A model generated the notes under the pieces. It ran no database searches and was not told where the DNA came from. It saw only the letters and a program-made list of their open reading frames with translations. From a virus (taxonomy: Duplodnaviria; Heunggongvirae; Uroviricota; Caudoviricetes), in the IMG/VR virus record IMGVR_UViG_2939147180_000006, positions 1 through 54,932 of that record: 54,932 nucleotides of DNA. The stretch is one strand, 5' to 3'. The position numbers and the translations under genes were made by a program. This document shows positions 6,501 through 29,413 of the stretch, piece by piece. Each line of letters opens with the position of its first letter. Position 1 is the stretch's first letter.

Positions 6501-9030
6501 CATTTGTAGCATTTTCAATAACATCCGTGCGATCGCCAAGATCTTTGATGTCACCAATCATTTCCTTGAACTGTTCTGAGTTCATCACGTCTTTGGTGAC
6601 GTAATCGCTGATTTCATCAAAATTCTCTGTCGGCTTACCTGATGCCTCCACAAAGTCAGACACGCCAAAAGCATTGCGTGTGCGCACATAAACGTAATAG
6701 GTGTGGCCCGTGTTCATGCCGCCAAACGTCCACTGATGACCACGCCCAGTATATTGTGCCTTAGTGGTTACTGATGCCGGATCGGTGATCTGCGTTTCAC
6801 CTGAGTAATAAAACTCGTAACTTGTATCAGTGGTAAGCGTTGTTCTGCTGATTGGGTAAACTGTAGCCTGAAATACACCGGGAACCCAATTAACTCCTAC
6901 CGGGGCCGCTGGTGCGCCAATAACCAGATCCACAATGCTTTCCGCGCCCTTCATGCCTGTGTCATTTCTGCCACGAATGCCTAATGAGTAATTGCCAGCA
7001 TCAATACCATAAAAATCATAACTGTAATTCGTAGTCTCGTAGCTTTTAACTACGGCCCCATCTGAATTATATACGCGGATTTCAAAGGTCAGGCGATGAG
7101 TTGTCGTCAGTGTTTCCCATGTTGCGCGGCATTGAACTGTTTCAGATCCAATGTTTAACACCTTCAGGTTTTCAATGTTCGGCACGCGGAAGTGATTAAG
7201 TGTGTCGTTGTTGACCTCAAAGATTGCGCCAGTATCTACTACAGCCTGTTTGTGAGGGTCATGCTGTGATGCCTCTATAGTGTACACGCTGTTATTTTCT
7301 GTTTCTGCTACACTGGTGATTCTACACAATACTGGTTTTGCTGCGCTAGTTGACACCGCAAATACAGTACCGTTACGAATCCATGCCGGGGCTGATGCAA
7401 GGGTAATTTTATTTCCGCTAACTCCGGTGATCTGGTGTTTTTTAAATTTGCCATCACTATCAAGCAAGCTAATGGTGTCGCCAGGGGCGATATATTCAGA
7501 ATCAACCTTATCGACAGTGATAACCCTGCCATTGTTTGCCACGATACGACCGCCTAGACGAGCGCCAGAGCGGTTATTGTCGAGTATCTCGATAATATCA
7601 CCGGGGGTGAAGTGAATTGCGTCACGGGCCATTTTAAACGTGAATTTAGACGGCTCGCGTTTTGCTGTTTCTATCAGCCATTTGCCAGCGCGGTACGCTT
7701 GCCCGCGTGACGTGCATCCGAACGCCTCCAACGTGGTTTCGTTATAACCATCGCGGGCGATTAGTTCATCATCCGCCACGTATTCTTTTGATTGCTCCCA
7801 GCCGTTTTCCGGGTCAGTCCATGATACGATCACGGCGTTGTAACACTCTGCAAGCGGAAGACTTGAGCGAGTAAACGCGCCATCAACGACGTTTGCGTTT
7901 GTGATGGTGGCAATTGGATCCTGTGGCGCATCAATCATCACGGTAAGGCGTTGCCCGTCCCATAACGCGATACCACGGAACATACCTGCGATGTTATCCA
8001 GTAGGTCGCGGGCGCTCATTTGCTCCGTAATGTAAGCGTTGAGAGTCATGCGAGGTTCAAGGCCACCATAGCCATCATCAACCAACTGATCGCAGTATTG
8101 AGAAAGCACATACAAAGCGCCATCATCAACATCAATGTAACCAGCATGTCGAGCAAGCCCGAAGCGCTCGTTTTTAACCAGATACCGGAAAATCCACGCA
8201 GGGTTATTGGTGTACGCTTTTTTGAATCCACCAAGCCATAAACCCGAATATGTGCGCGTTTCTGTGTTGTAGTTATCAGGAACATCAACAATCAGGCCGC
8301 GAAGGTGATAGGTACGGGTGGGTGTATCAGTATACTGATCATGGTCAATTACAGCGCCAGCTACAGCGGTATGAGGATAAGACAGATTATCATCTATTAT
8401 TTCGCTGTAACTACTCCACCGCGTATCATTTCGCAATAGATCGCTGTTGCTGTCTGCTGTTATGCGACGCACGCGAATATCAAACGGTTTTTCATTGGGC
8501 GCGTCTATGACATGAGCTTCCAGATACTCACCACTCTGTTTGCCTGGCCCAATAGTAATAATTTTAATTTGCGACCACGTAGAAGATGATGACGGTTTAA
8601 CATCAACCATCAACATAACGGACGTATTGTATTGATTGCCCTTATCATCTGACTGAACGAGAGCATCAACACCAAGATTCAACCTGACGCGGGTAACGTT
8701 TGGATCTGAAACAGTCCTGATTATTGGTGTGTCGTGAGTTACCTTTGCGTTGACAATAACGGTTGATTCGATGGCATTAAAACCATTAATCGGCGATTGG
8801 TCAGCCGTGCCGTTGCGCCAGGCTATACTAATCCCCGGGATTGATGTATTCCCGTTTGCGTCAGTAACAGGCGTGCCATTAAGCATCACATCATTTAGTG
8901 GCGCTTTCTGGTTTACAGGACCGTATATTGGCCCTTCGCTGAGAATATCTAAAACACGATAAAACTGTTTATGATACAGGTTATCGTTTAATAATACTGG
9001 TGTTTTGGCTTTGCCGCCGCCGCTACTCAT
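3589..9030 (-). CDS. J: Tail tip / host specificity protein J homolog with expanded central coiled-coil repeat region
   Basis: 1813 aa; N-terminal and core segments (WSSYSEIID, YHLRGLIVDVPDNY..YSGLW, NPAWIFRYL) resemble lambda J; position after I/K/L. Confidence 0.85.
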   Translation of the reverse strand: MSSGGGKAKTPVLLNDNLYHKQFYRVLDILSEGPIYGPVNQKAPLNDVMLNGTPVTDANGNTSIPGISIAWRNGTADQSPINGFNAIESTVIVNAKVTHDTPIIRTVSDPNVTRVRLNLGVDALVQSDDKGNQYNTSVMLMVDVKPSSSSTWSQIKIITIGPGKQSGEYLEAHVIDAPNEKPFDIRVRRITADSNSDLLRNDTRWSSYSEIIDDNLSYPHTAVAGAVIDHDQYTDTPTRTYHLRGLIVDVPDNYNTETRTYSGLWLGGFKKAYTNNPAWIFRYLVKNERFGLARHAGYIDVDDGALYVLSQYCDQLVDDGYGGLEPRMTLNAYITEQMSARDLLDNIAGMFRGIALWDGQRLTVMIDAPQDPIATITNANVVDGAFTRSSLPLAECYNAVIVSWTDPENGWEQSKEYVADDELIARDGYNETTLEAFGCTSRGQAYRAGKWLIETAKREPSKFTFKMARDAIHFTPGDIIEILDNNRSGARLGGRIVANNGRVITVDKVDSEYIAPGDTISLLDSDGKFKKHQITGVSGNKITLASAPAWIRNGTVFAVSTSAAKPVLCRITSVAETENNSVYTIEASQHDPHKQAVVDTGAIFEVNNDTLNHFRVPNIENLKVLNIGSETVQCRATWETLTTTHRLTFEIRVYNSDGAVVKSYETTNYSYDFYGIDAGNYSLGIRGRNDTGMKGAESIVDLVIGAPAAPVGVNWVPGVFQATVYPISRTTLTTDTSYEFYYSGETQITDPASVTTKAQYTGRGHQWTFGGMNTGHTYYVYVRTRNAFGVSDFVEASGKPTENFDEISDYVTKDVMNSEQFKEMIGDIKDLGDRTDVIENATNELKTATDNLKTATDNLTNITDDLRTETDNLTNITEDLRTDTDNLITETGTIKADTDTLKKETEDLYKKVKENADDIGQHESRIDLLEVSSEKVGSELEQAKASLQNASLALINNSLAQTNTRVTLTAQYKKGRTETKAEIDRIDNVIAEEKKATAESLKTITAEMNAMDSNLKGQISSVERAVADEASARAEAINGVNASISNLDKKTDASVNRLDQAIADETNARTQAVSDVNASISVLDKRTDASVKRLDKAIADETSARSEAISGVNASVSALDKKTDSSISRLDKAIADETSARTEAINGVNASISALDGKVTSNVSRLDKAIADETKARTDAISSVNASISTLESNTESEVNRLDQAIADEASARAQAISGVKASIDTLDKKTDASVSRLDKAISDETKARSDAITEVKADLTTLENNTNASVKRLDQAIADESSARAQAISGLSANLGAVENNVGKNSDEINQAKASLQNASIALINNSIAQTNTRVTLTAQYKKGRRETNAQIDRIDNVIAEEKKATAEAISGVSASITDLDKKTEASVNRLDQAIADETSARGQAISEVSASVSTLDNKVTSNVTRMDKAIADETKARADAISGLSASLTSTINSKVSEVSTALSTHETSSAEKFSQISASFESVNASITEWSQTMATADEALSTKIDQLTVTVNGNKTAIETTSKALTDFKGNVDATYSIKLATDSNGVKYAAGMSLGLTGDGTNFQSQCIFLVDRFVLMTAANGSYTSPFYVTNGAMYVKEAFIKDASIGTAKIADASITMAKIVNEIKSANFVPGSSGWRITQSGASEFNNVVVRGEIHADSGTFTGTVRANRFIGDIVAMHVFPDSSKVPNTTYRVARFCYRFIDSTTEGTYKNVLFQARLTGLLSSSYINAFINGVKVLDAKKFGNEQSNGMFVCGRDSVTDQIVDVVIEIYTPPTTVDITQIQLCCPTILIGRCNGTWDKWEESHD
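4690..5960. repeat. About 10 copies of a ~108-bp (36-aa) coding repeat inside J, plus a ~180-bp duplication (approx 4890-5070 vs 6040-6220)
   Basis: Protein repeat AIADETSARxxAIxGVNASISxLDKKTDASVxRLDK iterated; DNA lines visibly periodic; boundaries approximate. Confidence 0.7.
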
Positions 9031-25380: not shown

Positions 25381-26865
25381 TTAAAATCCGCGCAGGCGCT
25401 TCGGTAACATGAGGCCCATCGCCTGTGGCTGGCTTAGTTCGGTGATACCCCATACCATTGCATCCATACGGTCAGGGGATTTTTTAGCGGTAGCTGGCAC
25501 GTATTCCATCATTTGATTTTCCAGCGTGTACAGGCTGCCAGTGTGGGCCACCCTTCCTTGTGCATACAGTGCTGATATTGGTTCAGCGCGGGCGAATTTA
25601 CCTTTACTTGCGTGCACCTTAACAATGCGGCCTTTGAATCCGGCATTACGCAAAGTGGCCTCTGCCATTTCGCCGCCCTGGTTGGTTTCGATAACTATCG
25701 CGTCAGCTTCATGGATGTTGTAGGCGTTCATTGATGCCTGCGCCCAGTCGTTAGGTGACATGCGTCCTGAGTAGTCACCGTCTACAGAATACTGAGCATT
25801 CTTGCCGCCACCATAGGCGGAACACGCTATGATCCCCGTTTCGTCCGACTCATCAGATGATGTTGTCGCAGGGTCAATAGCTATTACAGTGCGTATTTTC
25901 TCCTGCGTTATCTGCATCCGGTGCGCGGCTGTTATCATCGCCTCTGTCCACAACGCACCCTCTTCATCGAATTTGCGCGGGCGCTGCATGTACTGGGCCT
26001 CAAATGACCTTCTGTGTGCCTTCAATCCAGCTTCATGGGCGTCATTGTGCTTTTTAGGCCACAGCCAGCCGTCTGGCAGATTGTGAGGAATAGGGATAGC
26101 GAACTCGTTTTCAGGGTACAGATCCCAGTAGTCCAGACTGTTATCAATCTTCACTGGCAGGTTCAGGTGATGCCATTTCTCACCGCTCCCACCTCGTAGC
26201 AGGTAGCCGGACAAATCATCGTAGTGGATGCGCTGCATAATGACGATAACAGGCGTTGTTTGCACTGCCAGACGTGAAGCAAGCGTGTCGTTATAGTTAG
26301 TGTTAACCTGCTTTCTCACCACGTCAGAATAAGCGTCAGCGGGTTTTAATGGGTCGTCAATGATTAACGCGCCGTTAAATCCCGGTTCCATATACCCTGC
26401 ACGGAACCCAGTAACCTGACCAAGCGATGACGTTGCATACACGCCGCCACCGTATTCAGTCCACCACATTGATTTTGAGTTTGCATCGTTGCGGATCCTC
26501 ATGGGCCACATTGCCTGATATTCAGGCGTACAGATCATGTTTCTTACGGTCGAGGAATTGAGTAACGCCAGGTTGTTGGAATAGGAGACATGAAGGAATC
26601 GTGTGCGGGGATTTATTGCGAGTGACCGCGCCATCATGTTGATAGTTGCGATCATGGTTTTGCCGTACCCTGGAGGGATGTTAATGATGAGTCTGGTTAT
26701 CTCACCATTGACAACGCGTTGCAGTGCGTCGCGGATAGCTAAGTGATGGCCTGAGATTAACATCTTCGTTCCGTTCGCTTGCTTATAGAAGTAGCGATTG
26801 AAAAACAGGCCATCGTTTTCACATTTGGACTGAATAACTCGTTCTTTGATTGTCAGCATAATCAC
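25381..26865 (-). CDS. terL: Terminase large subunit
   Basis: 494 aa; Walker-A-like NIPPGYGKT; acidic nuclease-type C-terminal motifs; downstream of small subunit. Confidence 0.85.
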   Translation of the reverse strand: MIMLTIKERVIQSKCENDGLFFNRYFYKQANGTKMLISGHHLAIRDALQRVVNGEITRLIINIPPGYGKTMIATINMMARSLAINPRTRFLHVSYSNNLALLNSSTVRNMICTPEYQAMWPMRIRNDANSKSMWWTEYGGGVYATSSLGQVTGFRAGYMEPGFNGALIIDDPLKPADAYSDVVRKQVNTNYNDTLASRLAVQTTPVIVIMQRIHYDDLSGYLLRGGSGEKWHHLNLPVKIDNSLDYWDLYPENEFAIPIPHNLPDGWLWPKKHNDAHEAGLKAHRRSFEAQYMQRPRKFDEEGALWTEAMITAAHRMQITQEKIRTVIAIDPATTSSDESDETGIIACSAYGGGKNAQYSVDGDYSGRMSPNDWAQASMNAYNIHEADAIVIETNQGGEMAEATLRNAGFKGRIVKVHASKGKFARAEPISALYAQGRVAHTGSLYTLENQMMEYVPATAKKSPDRMDAMVWGITELSQPQAMGLMLPKRLRGF

Positions 26866-27347
26866 ACCTCATCTTCTACTTCCTGAACGATGCGGGCGAT
26901 CTCTTCTTTTGTGACTTCTACCTGTACTGGTGCTTCTTCCCTGTTGCCTACGATTTCCTGCGTAACGCGTTCGCCATACTTACGCGGTTGCAGTTTTGCC
27001 AATAGCCATTTACGGGTTTCAATCATCAAATGATGTCTGTTTAACTCTTCCTTTTTGATGTTTTCTGGCGCGTCAGCAAGGTCGATGATTTCATCAGCTA
27101 ACACCTCAAATCCGATCTCCTTCGCGCGCATATACATGTCCGAAAACTCTGGCACGTCACGGAACCATTTAAGGATTGTTGAACGCGCAGGCATACCAGG
27201 CATCTTCGAAATCTTGTTAATACTTTCGCCGTCCGACACCAGCTCGCAGATCTCCAATGCCTTTTCTTCTGAATAGCCATGTGGACGGCCCGTCTTTTTG
27301 GCTGCTGGCTTTTTGTCTTCAGCCTTTGCCTTTTTAGTGCGGGCCAT
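26862..27347 (-). CDS. terS: Terminase small subunit
   Basis: Start trimmed to MARTKKAKAED; HTH-like N-terminal domain; 4-nt overlap with terL. Confidence 0.75.
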   Translation of the reverse strand: MARTKKAKAEDKKPAAKKTGRPHGYSEEKALEICELVSDGESINKISKMPGMPARSTILKWFRDVPEFSDMYMRAKEIGFEVLADEIIDLADAPENIKKEELNRHHLMIETRKWLLAKLQPRKYGERVTQEIVGNREEAPVQVEVTKEEIARIVQEVEDEV

Positions 27348-27451
27348 AATCTCACCTCTTAATATTTGTTGATGATATATACGCAAGCCACAAAACTTGC
27401 GCAATATGTTAATACTTCCAACCAGTCGAATAATTCTTTCATCTTTTCACC

Positions 27452-27520
27452 TTACTGCGACAAGGCCGCCATAGTGAGAACAATCGCGACAATCAGGAAA
27501 AAGAAATCAAGCCATTTCAT
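27452..27520 (-). CDS. Tiny hydrophobic peptide (22 aa) MKWLDFFFLIVAIVLTMAALSQ
   Basis: Manually translated; AGGAG RBS; member of tandem array. Confidence 0.35.
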   Translation of the reverse strand: MKWLDFFFLIVAIVLTMAALSQ

Positions 27521-27537
27521 TTTTAAACTCCTGCGAT

Positions 27538-27609
27538 TCAGTTAACACTTAAAAGAACCGCAACGATGACGATCACTATAATCATGCAAAAGAAGTCTGC
27601 TTCTCTCAT
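27538..27609 (-). CDS. Tiny hydrophobic peptide (23 aa) MREADFFCMIIVIVIVAVLLSVN
   Basis: Manually translated; GAGGG RBS; ATGA overlap with upstream peptide. Confidence 0.35.
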   Translation of the reverse strand: MREADFFCMIIVIVIVAVLLSVN

Positions 27610-27686
27610 CTTTTTAACCCTCGATAAAAATCAACAGCAATGACTACAACTACAGCCACCAGCAATAGCATTTCGTATGCGTTCAT
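27606..27686 (-). CDS. Tiny hydrophobic peptide (26 aa) MNAYEMLLLVAVVVVIAVDFYRGLKR
   Basis: Manually translated; ATGA stop-start overlaps on both sides. Confidence 0.35.
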   Translation of the reverse strand: MNAYEMLLLVAVVVVIAVDFYRGLKR

Positions 27687-27781
27687 TTGATGCTACCCAT
27701 AATAAGGCCGATGATGATAATTATGGCGACAGTGCCTAACATCATTCCGCACATAATCGCCATCAGTTCGAATATATCCAT
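27683..27781 (-). CDS. Tiny hydrophobic peptide (32 aa) MDIFELMAIMCGMMLGTVAIIIIIGLIMGSIK
   Basis: C-terminal part of table ORF 27683..27886; AGGTGA RBS before the internal ATG. Confidence 0.4.
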   Translation of the reverse strand: MDIFELMAIMCGMMLGTVAIIIIIGLIMGSIK

Positions 27782-27789
27782 GCCGTCAC

Positions 27790-27864
27790 CTATACAACAT
27801 TCTTCAACCACAGATACATGATGACGGCGAACGTTGAGCACCATATGAGATCGTAAATATCCAT
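27790..27864 (-). CDS. Tiny hydrophobic peptide (24 aa) MDIYDLIWCSTFAVIMYLWLKNVV
   Basis: Manually translated; weakest member of the array. Confidence 0.25.
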   Translation of the reverse strand: MDIYDLIWCSTFAVIMYLWLKNVV

Positions 27865-27875
27865 TGTGAACACCT

Positions 27876-27950
27876 TCAGCTTTCAATGAATATCATGATC
27901 GCCAGCCATACAGCGACGCATAAGGAAAGGATAACGAGCGGGTCAATCAT
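27876..27950 (-). CDS. Tiny hydrophobic peptide (24 aa) MIDPLVILSLCVAVWLAIMIFIES
   Basis: Manually translated; overlaps upstream peptide stop by 8 nt. Confidence 0.35.
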   Translation of the reverse strand: MIDPLVILSLCVAVWLAIMIFIES

Positions 27951-28059
27951 GCTGCCCCTCCACCCAGTGCTTGATCTTTGCGTTTATTAGTGCAACTGCA
28001 ATAAAACCCACCAGGAATACAGAAACACCGATCAATCCGGCTATTACATAAGCGTCCAT
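27943..28059 (-). CDS. Small membrane peptide (38 aa) MDAYVIAGLIGVSVFLVGFIAVALINAKIKHWVEGQHD
   Basis: Manually translated; GGGGGTGA RBS; starts 2 nt after the HExxH-protein stop. Confidence 0.4.
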   Translation of the reverse strand: MDAYVIAGLIGVSVFLVGFIAVALINAKIKHWVEGQHD

Positions 28060-28061
28060 AA

Positions 28062-28646
28062 TCACCCCCGCTTAAAGCTCATAACACGCGGTACAAGCGC
28101 TTCTTTTGCTTTAGGCTTACGTTTGCCTTTCTTAGCTGGTTTTTTCTCTTCTTTCGGCTCCTCTGCCTGTTCAACTGCCTGTTCTGCTGATTTAGTAGCC
28201 TTTTCCGCCTGGTCTAATGCCTTCTCTACGACTTCAGCCGCCTGCATTGCTGCAACCTGTGCTTCGTTTGATTCAGCCAGGATTGGGAAGAATGCGTCAA
28301 AGATGCGGCCTACCATGTAAGCATATGTCTCGTTTGCCGGATGAGTTGGATCAGTGGTTGCCACGACACCTACATCGCTTAGAACGTGGAATGTAGTGTG
28401 GGCCGCTTCATGTACCAGTGTTCCTAACTCATTGTCGAATACTGCGATCACATAGAAATTACCGCCTTTCTCACCAGTACAAGTAAGCGTTAATCCTCCT
28501 GCCAGTTCGAAATCAGGTTCGATTGGAATCCCTGCCTTTTCGCAAAATTCATAGAACATGTCGCGGGTCGGGCAAAAGAAAACGGTTGTATGCTCAAAAA
28601 GCGGAATCTTGAATTGAGGCAACTTAATGCCTTTAGCCTTAGCCAT
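28062..28646 (-). CDS. Hypothetical protein with HExxH motif and Lys/Glu-rich C-terminal tail
   Basis: 194 aa; LVHEAAHTTFH (HExxH, zinc-metallopeptidase-like) then AEKATKSAEQAVEQAEEPKEEKKPAKKGKRKPKAK. Confidence 0.5.
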   Translation of the reverse strand: MAKAKGIKLPQFKIPLFEHTTVFFCPTRDMFYEFCEKAGIPIEPDFELAGGLTLTCTGEKGGNFYVIAVFDNELGTLVHEAAHTTFHVLSDVGVVATTDPTHPANETYAYMVGRIFDAFFPILAESNEAQVAAMQAAEVVEKALDQAEKATKSAEQAVEQAEEPKEEKKPAKKGKRKPKAKEALVPRVMSFKRG

Positions 28647-28924
28647 CAGAATATTCCTCTATCCTGAAAAATATAACCCCCGCAAAAATCGACACCGCAG
28701 GGAGTGAAAACAGCTATAAAACACTGAAAACGGCGCTTAATCAGTACCGTTTCCAGAATTTTATAAAATTGGATAATGGCGCTTTCTTCTACCCAGGTAG
28801 CGCCGGACCTGTTAATGGGACTGTTGATCCGGTATTACGTGTTTTTGAATTTCCGCCGTCGCTCGCGGGAAGGATTGGCCCGGTTATGGCTGGCTGGCGG
28901 AAACGGCGACACGTCCACGCGCTG

Positions 28925-29413
28925 TTATTCTTTGCGTAAGCACTGCGTTTTGATGTAGTCCTGTAACCCAGTGATCTGAGCGTCTTTCGTTTTTAGTTGT
29001 TCTCTGAGGGATAGATAAGCCGATTCAGCGTCGGGAGTGAGTCTACAGGTGGCTCCATCAATGGCGCTGGCGGATCCGGTGGGGTCGGACAATCGCACAG
29101 GTGTTGCGTTGACGCGCAACCGGATAGTACCGTTATCAATGCCAGTGCGCAGATCGGCAATGTCAGATCTGATAGCTTTAATCTCATCGTGATACCTCTT
29201 ATCAAGTTTTGACAGTTCGGCGTTTCGCTCCTTCATCTGCTGAATAGTGTTACTTGCTGTCTTTAGTGCGCCCTGAGTGGTCGTTAACTCTTCCTGTAAC
29301 CTTGTTGCCTCACTCTGGTAATGGCACGTTACGGCGGTAAGGCTGGCAATAATGCAAACAACAGCGGCGATAATTAACGCCTTCACCTTGTCCACGTTTC
29401 CCCCCATTCGCAA
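28925..29413 (-). CDS. Rz: i-spanin (Rz-like)
   Basis: N-terminal TM anchor [14 protein letters not shown], coiled-coil periplasmic domain; directly after endolysin; Rz1 embedded in +1 frame. Confidence 0.8.
28993..29187 (-). CDS. Rz1: o-spanin (Rz1-like lipoprotein) embedded within Rz
   Basis: [24 protein letters not shown] lipobox followed by Pro-rich [17 protein letters not shown]; start trimmed from table ORF. Confidence 0.75.
   Translation of the reverse strand: MRLKLSDLTLPICALALITVLSGCASTQHLCDCPTPPDPPAPLMEPPVDSLPTLNRLIYPSENN

Follow-up and report, generated by a model that had tools for sequence, protein, structure and literature searches.

Zincin-like metallopeptidases are built on a compact core that comprises a small sheet, an N-terminal helix, a helix carrying the HExxH motif and a second helix that supplies a Glu ligand (Iyer et al., PMC5512222). 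In phage conflict and early-phase biology this core is represented by the MPTase-PolyVal domains of N4 virion RNA polymerase, P1 DdrB and the C-terminal domain of ArdC (PMC5512222), and a protein predicted to follow the same fold plan, in the same biological sphere, is encoded on the minus strand (28062-28646) of the 54,932-nucleotide (nt) tailed-phage DNA analysed here (Caudoviricetes; IMG/VR record IMGVR_UViG_2939147180_000006, positions 1 to 54,932; this whole stretch is hereafter the window). Its catalytic part is a standalone unit of ~125 amino acids (aa), whereas the polymerase domain of N4-like phages has a long insert after the HExxH helix. Judging from residue conservation and a structural model, we hold it highly probable that the protein is an active zincin metallopeptidase; our confidence in its biological role is much lower, and there we lean, with some reserve, towards a soluble, cytoplasmic, standalone zinc endopeptidase of the smallest zincin fold that would act as an accessory conflict or host-modulation effector and carry a lineage-specific regulating or tethering tail.

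The closest described relatives, HkcC of P22 and HK620 and Orf-129 of ST64T, are respectively 34% and 43% identical to the window protein over the domain, and the HExxH...NETY signature is common to all of them. Like the window gene both are late-strand accessory genes, and that for Orf-129 likewise lies between Rz and the small terminase gene; hkcC sits between gene 16 and the tailspike gene, in the 'ant moron', whereas the window gene follows Rz. HkcC and Orf-129 are, moreover, bare domains of 121-129 aa that lack the acidic helix and basic tail of the window protein. The hkcC gene has been listed merely as one of unknown function, in an 'ant moron' region without a role in morphogenesis or lysis (PMC2629481), and a literature search on hkcC, on the related coliphage mEp021 and on anti-defence by phage metalloproteases found no functional study of any family member.

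An invariant gluzincin signature on a predicted minimal fold

A previous, sequence-only reading of the window had drawn attention to a 194-aa open reading frame (ORF) with a single HEAAH motif. The ORF is real and runs on the minus strand, which that reading had omitted, from an ATG at 28646 to a TGA at 28064-28062, with a GAGGA ribosome-binding site ~9 nt 5' of the start codon. The motif is indeed the only HExxH in the protein, at residues 79-83 (nt 28398-28412), as well as the only one among the 20,730 residues of all open frames of at least 100 aa in the six frames of the whole window. The gene and its catalytic features are as follows.

28062..28646, minus strand: putative protease coding sequence, 194 aa plus TGA stop (ORF list; homologue of mEp021 gp49, mEp021_49)
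28275..28646, minus strand: catalytic domain, aa 1-124, predicted minimal zincin fold of the gluzincin type (PHROG 1365 match and AlphaFold2 model)
28494..28496, minus strand: G51, invariant glycine (113/113) at the start of strand 51-57, the strand position being taken from the model
28398..28412, minus strand: HEAAH, aa 79-83, in helix 74-91 and invariant in 113/113 at H79 and H83 (predicted Zn ligands) and E80 (predicted general base)
28323..28334, minus strand: NETY, aa 105-108, containing E106 (113/113), which is predicted to be the third Zn ligand and lies where the 'glutamate helix' starts

Conservation was assessed in an alignment of 113 diverse family members, which are 23-64% identical to the window protein and have a mean column identity of 21%. 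Only five columns are invariant, namely G51, H79, E80, H83 and E106, with Y110 kept in 110 and N105 in 71 of the 113 sequences, and the family signature reads GVFD-x5-TLxHExxH-x(20-23)-NExFCYL. The distance from H83 to E106 is 23 residues in the window protein and 20 in most members. At the sequence level, HExxH followed after 20-23 residues by NExxxY is a gluzincin signature with thermolysin-type spacing; in keeping with this, positions 70-116 of the family profile align, weakly, to thermolysin 134-180 (E 1.3), and the alignment contains the invariant Glu and no conserved His either between H83 and E106 or beyond.

The AlphaFold2 model computed with the 113-sequence alignment is of high confidence (predicted local distance difference test, pLDDT, 94.1; predicted template-modelling score, pTM, 0.88); the single-sequence prediction was unusable (pLDDT 49). 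Strands are placed at residues 11-13, 21-25, 51-57 and 63-69, and helices at 28-38 (the backing helix), 44-48, 74-91 (HExxH) and 104-130, with E106 at the start of the last, so that the order of sheet, backing helix, HExxH helix and Glu helix matches the zincin core as defined in PMC5512222. The globular part, residues 1-124, is acidic (isoelectric point, pI, 5.0). A compact N-terminal domain had been described in the sequence-only reading and is borne out, its size being rather ~124-130 aa in the model than the ~110 aa first given.

Known structures are distant. Foldseek found no match to the model in the PDB at E ≤1e-3, and a search of PDB chains with the single sequence gave noise only, while the family profile retrieved myroilysin (E 0.006) and, at E ~1, thermolysin and N4 virion RNA polymerase, which is suggestive and not significant. 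Predicted viral structures yielded 29 matches at E ≤1e-3 from very diverse phages, almost all of them uncharacterised; the named entries among the top 40 are two 'SprT-like', one 'SprT', one 'Metalloprotease' and one BepA-type protease. The dearth of a strong match to any solved protease, or of any to curated families, would fit an incidental or vestigial HExxH in what is really a non-enzymatic binding or structural protein. We regard that as extremely unlikely: the invariant positions are the zincin catalytic set plus one glycine and lie on the expected helices, and one would not expect a site in decay to stand out as the best-conserved element in 113 sequences with so little identity otherwise. 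Invariance of H79, E80, H83 and E106 in relatives as little as 23% and at most 64% identical, together with the zincin layout of the model, thus argues that the motif is not incidental and supports the earlier suggestion that it marks a zinc-dependent hydrolase.

In the mechanism that we propose, one Zn2+ would be held by H79 and H83 from the active-site helix and by E106 from the next helix, with E80 activating the catalytic water. The substrate would bind as an extra strand along the sheet edge formed by residues 51-57, an edge that, in the model, G51 may help to shape, and Y110, four residues past E106, is a candidate for a transition-state or ligand-positioning residue.

PHROG 1365 as a standalone family of predicted zincins

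Where the sequence-only reading had found no named family, residues 1-131 match PHROG 1365 (E 5e-30), a family without known function to which P22/HK620 HkcC and ST64T Orf-129 also belong. The match recurs in 112 of the 113 aligned relatives and in RSJ2 ORF43, Bp4 orf2 and phCDa gp24. A HMMER search of 1.84 billion representatives gave 152 clusters (50% identity) at E ≤1e-3, nearly all of standalone proteins of 105-140 aa, and the listed family representatives are single-domain proteins of 67-189 aa, the exception being P0259, a spurious 527-aa repeat protein.

By tblastn, homologues with 34-45% identity are present in 73 records of P22-like phages, at two loci. The first, flanked by the lysis genes and the gene for the small terminase subunit, is that of ST64T Orf-129 and the proteins equivalent to it; the second holds HK620 HkcC and an intact, unannotated ORF of P22, on the late-operon strand of the 'ant moron', where the HkcC-type ORF is flanked by sieA/hkcB and mnt. 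Both paralogues are present in several P22-like phages. In P22 itself (BK000583.1, 13849-14226, plus strand; L002 2989-3366), the intact hkcC-type ORF encodes 125 aa with HECAH and NETY, has no annotated coding sequence and overlaps the annotated sieA promoter with its 5' end; another P22 record (AF217253.1, 37376-37668) holds a second family match in two pieces, probably frameshifted.

Among described zincins, the nearest are the metallopeptidase domains of polyvalent proteins. One homologue (P0118, 59% identical) is named 'PolyVal Metallopeptidase superfamily domain' in an nr record, and on account of this name an alignment was built from eleven N4-like virion RNA polymerases, covering their metallopeptidase region. 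The hhalign comparison with it gave 91.1% probability and E 1.1e-6 over 61 columns, which span the strand, the backing helix, the hairpin and the HExxH helix and are not reliable over the Glu helix; with one N4-like polymerase segment the probability was 76%. The window protein does not match PF18818 (MPTase-PolyVal) at E up to 10, nor does this Pfam family figure among the 25 commonest, out of 46, that are listed for the 113 members. Embedding in a multidomain polyvalent protein was not seen among the listed family representatives. In phage Bp4 the two forms coexist, as an early standalone PHROG 1365 protease (L006 2920-3246) and as a related metallopeptidase domain inside the virion RNA polymerase (L011 2956-13668); phCDa likewise has a PHROG 1365 gene in its early region (L008 2818-3180).

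DNA-activated small zincins are an established theme (Spartan/Wss1, CapP/IrrE), and the family could be read as a SprT/Wss1/Spartan-like DNA-dependent protease whose tail binds DNA while the enzyme clears bound or cross-linked proteins before or during packaging. There is a likeness, in that these too are small zincins with a TL(V/L)HE(L/M)xH-type helix, some with basic DNA-binding parts; of the few structural neighbours in the viral structure library that have a name, more are labelled SprT than anything else (three of five in the top 40), the basic tail and the proximity to packaging genes fit, and the SprT-like Pfam family PF10263 matches 28 of the 113 members weakly (best E 4e-4). The matches examined nevertheless score 11-14 bits, below the cut-off of 25.6 bits, and extend over only 15-29 residues at the HExxH helix; in a comparison with E. 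coli SprT (YggI), hhalign gives 4% probability with an alignment outside the active site, as against 76% for the single N4-like polymerase segment. The third ligand, furthermore, is an invariant Glu and not the downstream His typical of SprT/Wss1, the family has no Zn-ribbon, and more than 90% of its members have no DNA-binding appendage, all of which makes this assignment improbable.

A regulatory protease of the ImmA/IrrE type, cleaving a repressor or anti-sigma-like regulator and thereby switching the phage or host programme, is in our estimate very improbable. The traces of this kind are a single match of P0118 to Peptidase_M78 (PF06114; E 0.099), weak matches of two members to the PADLOC capP model and the location of the P22 paralogue in the immI region; every one of the profile matches is far below threshold. 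In contrast to ImmA/IrrE/CapP (M78) proteins, the family shows no fused sensor domain, no profile match above noise and no adjacent helix-turn-helix substrate gene in any context examined, and its expression falls late rather than at the lysis-lysogeny decision. As for the minigluzincins (proabylysin, projannalysin), whose HExxH-plus-Glu domain measures about 100-110 aa and is kept latent by the protein's own C-terminal tail lying in the cleft, and the 114-aa 'predicted zincin-like metalloprotease' of PDB 3e11, their structural score is weak, no sequence relationship is detectable, and they are archaeal or bacterial rather than phage proteins. The protein is best described as a member of a separate, always standalone zincin family, whose nearest kin is the 'PolyVal' assemblage of phage metallopeptidases.

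Genomic contexts of the family and its timing

The sequence-only reading had seen the gene as lying outside any canonical slot. Its position directly after Rz, or adjoining terminase and portal genes, in fact recurs in unrelated phage types. All contexts examined in temperate phages and Autographiviridae have the gene on the strand of the late operon, a strand and setting usual for late accessory genes. It follows Rz in the 'mEpimmI' phages, the coliphage group to which the window belongs by DNA identity, and in the P22-like ST64T and loci L025 and L028; in the Ralstonia phage RSJ2 (Autographiviridae) it comes last, after the genes for the large terminase subunit (TerL), lysozyme and Rz; and in two siphophage contigs whose lysis cassette lies inside the head module the protease gene still comes after Rz, overlapping its stop codon in one of them (L026). 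Elsewhere it stands beside packaging genes: in L024 it has TerL on one side and portal on the other, in L022 it overlaps the start of portal, and in L029 it overlaps the stop of TerL. N4-like phages (Bp4 orf2, phCDa gp24) have it among their very first early genes.

The after-Rz placements suggest a lysis-linked factor, an optional fifth member of the lysis cassette, next to holin, endolysin and Rz/Rz1, that would cleave a cytoplasmic regulator or an envelope-anchoring protein and so time or complete lysis; in four architectures unrelated to one another (mEpimmI, P22-like, Autographiviridae RSJ2 and the pair of siphophage contigs), Rz is followed by the gene either immediately or with one or two small genes in between. 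The Rz-terminase junction is, at the same time, a general hot spot for inserted accessory genes in lambdoid genomes, so that the synteny may be positional and not functional. Lacking a signal peptide, transmembrane segment and lipobox, the protein could not reach periplasmic spanin or endolysin targets, and lysis neighbours are missing in L022, L024, L029, the P22 hkcC locus and the N4-like phages. We consider a lysis role distinctly unlikely.

The packaging-side placements point in another direction, towards a virion-associated early-phase effector or processing protease that is made late, loaded into the head, injected and active at the start of the next infection. It would correspond, as a separate protein, to the metallopeptidase domain of N4 virion RNA polymerase, P1 DdrB and ArdC-type polyvalent proteins; tailed forms might ride on the packaged DNA by their Lys-rich tail, or the enzyme might trim head-internal proteins before ejection. 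Roles of this kind have been proposed for these domains (PMC5512222), and the closest named relative is precisely the metallopeptidase domain of N4-like virion RNA polymerases. The TerL- and portal-adjoining genes of L024, L022 and L029 are consistent with it, as are the weak ART-PolyVal match in the gene after the L024 portal and the first early genes of N4-like phages, since either arrangement would deliver the activity at the onset of infection. However, mass spectrometry of mEp021 virions identified 16 proteins, of which only two are encoded outside the structural cluster, both upstream of the lysis genes (PMC11893012), which means that gp49 was not detected in these particles. The listed representatives are, besides, never fused to head-targeting or other polyvalent domains, and most members have no tail able to bind DNA; head loading therefore appears unlikely to us.

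The L024 gene just mentioned (7478-8557), in a metagenomic phage with a P22-type portal, encodes 359 aa, and its Pfam match to ART-PolyVal is weak; its product is possibly an injected effector encoded next to a standalone metallopeptidase. A prohead maturation protease was also considered and set aside: the P22-like phages that carry the family are not known to cleave their capsid proteins.

A proposed cytoplasmic effector protease

The role that we favour, if only by a modest degree of belief, is that of an accessory, dispensable conflict or host-modulation effector, which would be expressed from the same Q-dependent late transcript as the genes for lysis and DNA packaging and would cut a specific host or phage protein. 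Injected 'polyvalent' proteins of phages and plasmids contain metallopeptidase domains, and the enzyme would amount to a free-standing relative of these. With neither a signal peptide nor a transmembrane segment or lipobox in its sequence, the protein is expected to work in the cytoplasm; a lipoprotein or secreted protein was ruled out in view of a charged, proline-rich N-terminus with no hydrophobic core and of a C25 that is present in only 37 of the 113 relatives. Accessory status is favoured by the 'ant moron' location of hkcC and by the sporadic occurrence of the gene, found in only 34 of 5,426 complete E. coli genomes. The tail specific to mEpimmI phages, with its acidic helix, Lys-rich stretch and terminal VPRVMSFKRG, would most likely tether or regulate the enzyme, either by binding a polyanion such as DNA or by occupying the protein's own active-site cleft, as in minigluzincin zymogens.

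Several observations weigh against this assignment. No neighbour or partner gene is constant across the contexts examined; the repeated placement after Rz could point to a lysis-linked role instead, and that beside terminase and portal to one in packaging or assembly; scans of the protein and its 113 relatives against Pfam, NCBIfam and PADLOC gave nothing above threshold; and, with over 90% of the family tailless, the mechanism cannot hinge on the tail, which must be an add-on rather than part of the core.

The PHROG 1365 proteins could also be free-standing versions of the metallopeptidase 'warheads' of injected polyvalent proteins, supplied in the first moments of infection by one of two routes, namely as first early genes in N4-like phages or, in temperate and T7-like phages, as late products made beside terminase and portal and carried in the head; in the tailed forms the Lys-rich tail would bind packaged DNA, and once in the cell the enzyme would cut a host immunity protein or a DNA-bound protein. 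We give this reading little credence as it stands. Were it true, P22 would carry an unrecognised protease-based counter-defence gene, hkcC.

The family is carried by well-studied phages (P22, HK620, ST64T, epsilon34 and N4-like coliphages) and by a gut-prevalent group of E. coli prophages, and its members are annotated 'hypothetical' or 'unknown' despite their presence in some of the best-studied phages. That the zincin catalytic set provides its sole invariant residues turns an anonymous accessory gene into a testable enzyme. Candidate roles for such a cytoplasmic protease, late in most phages and early in N4-like ones, are counter-defence, packaging hygiene and lysis control, and if its substrate is a host immunity protein, it would add a protease-based mechanism to the known anti-defence strategies. 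What was already known is the enzyme class and the automated PolyVal metallopeptidase label on one homologue; what the protein offers is less a surprise than a clearly defined lead that is easy to test.

Acidic linker and basic tail

The C-terminal third of the window protein consists of the following features.

28152..28274, minus strand: acidic Ala/Glu-rich linker, aa 125-165, predicted helical (pI 4.3, 27% Ala)
28167-28208, minus strand: 14-aa insertion in the linker, aa 147-160, absent from the common 180-aa form (alignment)
28065..28151, minus strand: basic tail, aa 166-194, made up of KKPAKKGKRKPKAK and then the conserved C-terminal EALVPRVMSFKRG (nt 28065-28103), with a net charge of +9 over 29 residues

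The Lys/Pro-rich tail is as the sequence-only reading described it, with KEEKKPAKKGKRKPKAK at residues 165-181 after an acidic Ala/Glu-rich segment. For the linker, the single-sequence AlphaFold2 run drew a continuous helix over residues 106-160, at low confidence, and there is a weak Alanine_zipper match (E 0.069). In most close mEpimmI-type copies the catalytic domain is 95-98% conserved and the linker is variable; homologues with as little as 52% identity (P0121) still have the VPR(V/I)xx(F/Y)KRG end, whereas P0113 and P0117 have a different tail in its place. The 177-aa copy of mEp013 matches the window protein over residues 1-126 only, so its C-terminal part differs from the VPRVMSFKRG type, and in this phage (L010 1227-2232) an HNH endonuclease gene has been inserted directly after, and overlapping, the protease gene. 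Two further copies, P0008 (209 aa) and P0009 (211 aa), read through the normal stop after ...FKRG, the P0008 extension being hydrophobic; their sequences suggest loss of the stop codon into the first downstream mini-ORF region.

Across the family, C-terminal extensions of at least 15 aa are present in 13 of 169 representatives, and those of the distant members P0160, P0174, P0257 and P0212 are charged helices that end in basic stretches. In the P22-like prophage of Klebsiella aerogenes (LVUP01000124.1; L028 5374-5514), a 46-aa ORF extremely rich in Lys, MPLKKGKSKKVV...KAGKKKKKGAK, shares 20 nt with the 3' end of the protease gene in a different frame and might represent, in split or frameshifted form, what is a fused basic tail in the window protein. 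The recurrence of basic segments in these sequences speaks, modestly, for the protease and a polycationic segment working as a pair; such a segment may bind nucleic acid or membrane, as the sequence-only reading suggested for the tail, or may regulate the enzyme.

The window locus, its leader and its mini-ORFs

The region is 89-93% identical in DNA to the Escherichia phages mEp021, mEp010, mEp013, mEp044, mEp515, mEp554 and MagusPhagus. The 'mEpimmI' group comprises temperate, Nus-dependent, non-lambdoid coliphages (PMC11893012), and the protease gene is found in all seven of its phage records. Full-length copies in mEp515, mEp044 and mEp554 are 82-95% identical to the window protein, a cluster of 556 E. 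coli prophage proteins is 95% identical to it, and each of the copies in complete E. coli genomes is chromosomal and annotated 'hypothetical protein', as is mEp021_49. A second PHROG 1365 family copy was sought in the window, and none was found.

The gene lies, as previously noted, between Rz/Rz1 and a peptide array, with the Rz-like ORF on its 5' side and eight mini-ORFs on its 3' side. The endolysin and holin genes are located 5' of the Rz-like ORF, and the run of mini-ORFs is followed by the genes for the small terminase subunit (PHROG 1482), the large terminase and the portal.

28925..29413: Rz-like spanin ORF with an embedded Rz1-like frame (PHROG 13, E 1.5e-43)
28647..28924, minus strand: structured 278-nt intergenic leader between Rz and the protease gene (RNA fold z-score -3.2 against shuffled sequences)
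27943..28059, minus strand: first mini-ORF, 38 aa, with its ATG at 28059; GGGGGTGA overlaps the protease stop codon, 4 nt upstream of this ATG

The leader is predicted to form hairpins at 28850-28903, 28778-28804, 28726-28753 and 28677-28704, two of them followed by U-rich tracts, and the mEp021 and mEp013 records have an intrinsic terminator annotated at the equivalent place. Taken together, the hairpins and these annotations suggest that the gene and the packaging genes behind it should need Q-type antitermination. A consensus promoter and terminator scan of 27300-29100 gave no more sites than shuffled sequence and called no terminator in the leader, and the Rfam search gave nothing relevant. 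The last hairpin ends ~30 nt before the protease start codon and might also affect translation.

The mini-ORFs form a tightly packed tandem array of eight, 22-38 aa each, that takes up all of the space from the protease gene to the small terminase gene (27359-28059, minus strand). Every one codes for one hydrophobic peptide of transmembrane-like character, in most cases with an acidic residue (D/E) among the first six positions (MDAY.., MIDP.., MDIYD.., MDIFE.., MNAYE.., MREAD.., MKWLD.. and MKELFD..), and is preceded by a ribosome-binding site of its own or starts in an ATGA overlap of start and stop codons. From the arrangement of its start site, the first is probably translationally coupled to the protease gene. 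None of the eight matches a PHROG family; four are annotated in mEp044 and none in mEp021. Co-conservation of the protease gene with this array, a link that the sequence-only reading had raised, holds within the mEpimmI phages and fails beyond them.

Beyond the array, the small terminase subunit (26862-27347, minus strand) begins with ARTKKAKAEDKKPAAKKTGRP, a Lys/Ala/Pro-rich N-terminus that resembles the protease tail KKPAKKGKRKPKAK in composition, a likeness that may be coincidence or may reflect a shared theme of polyanion binding.

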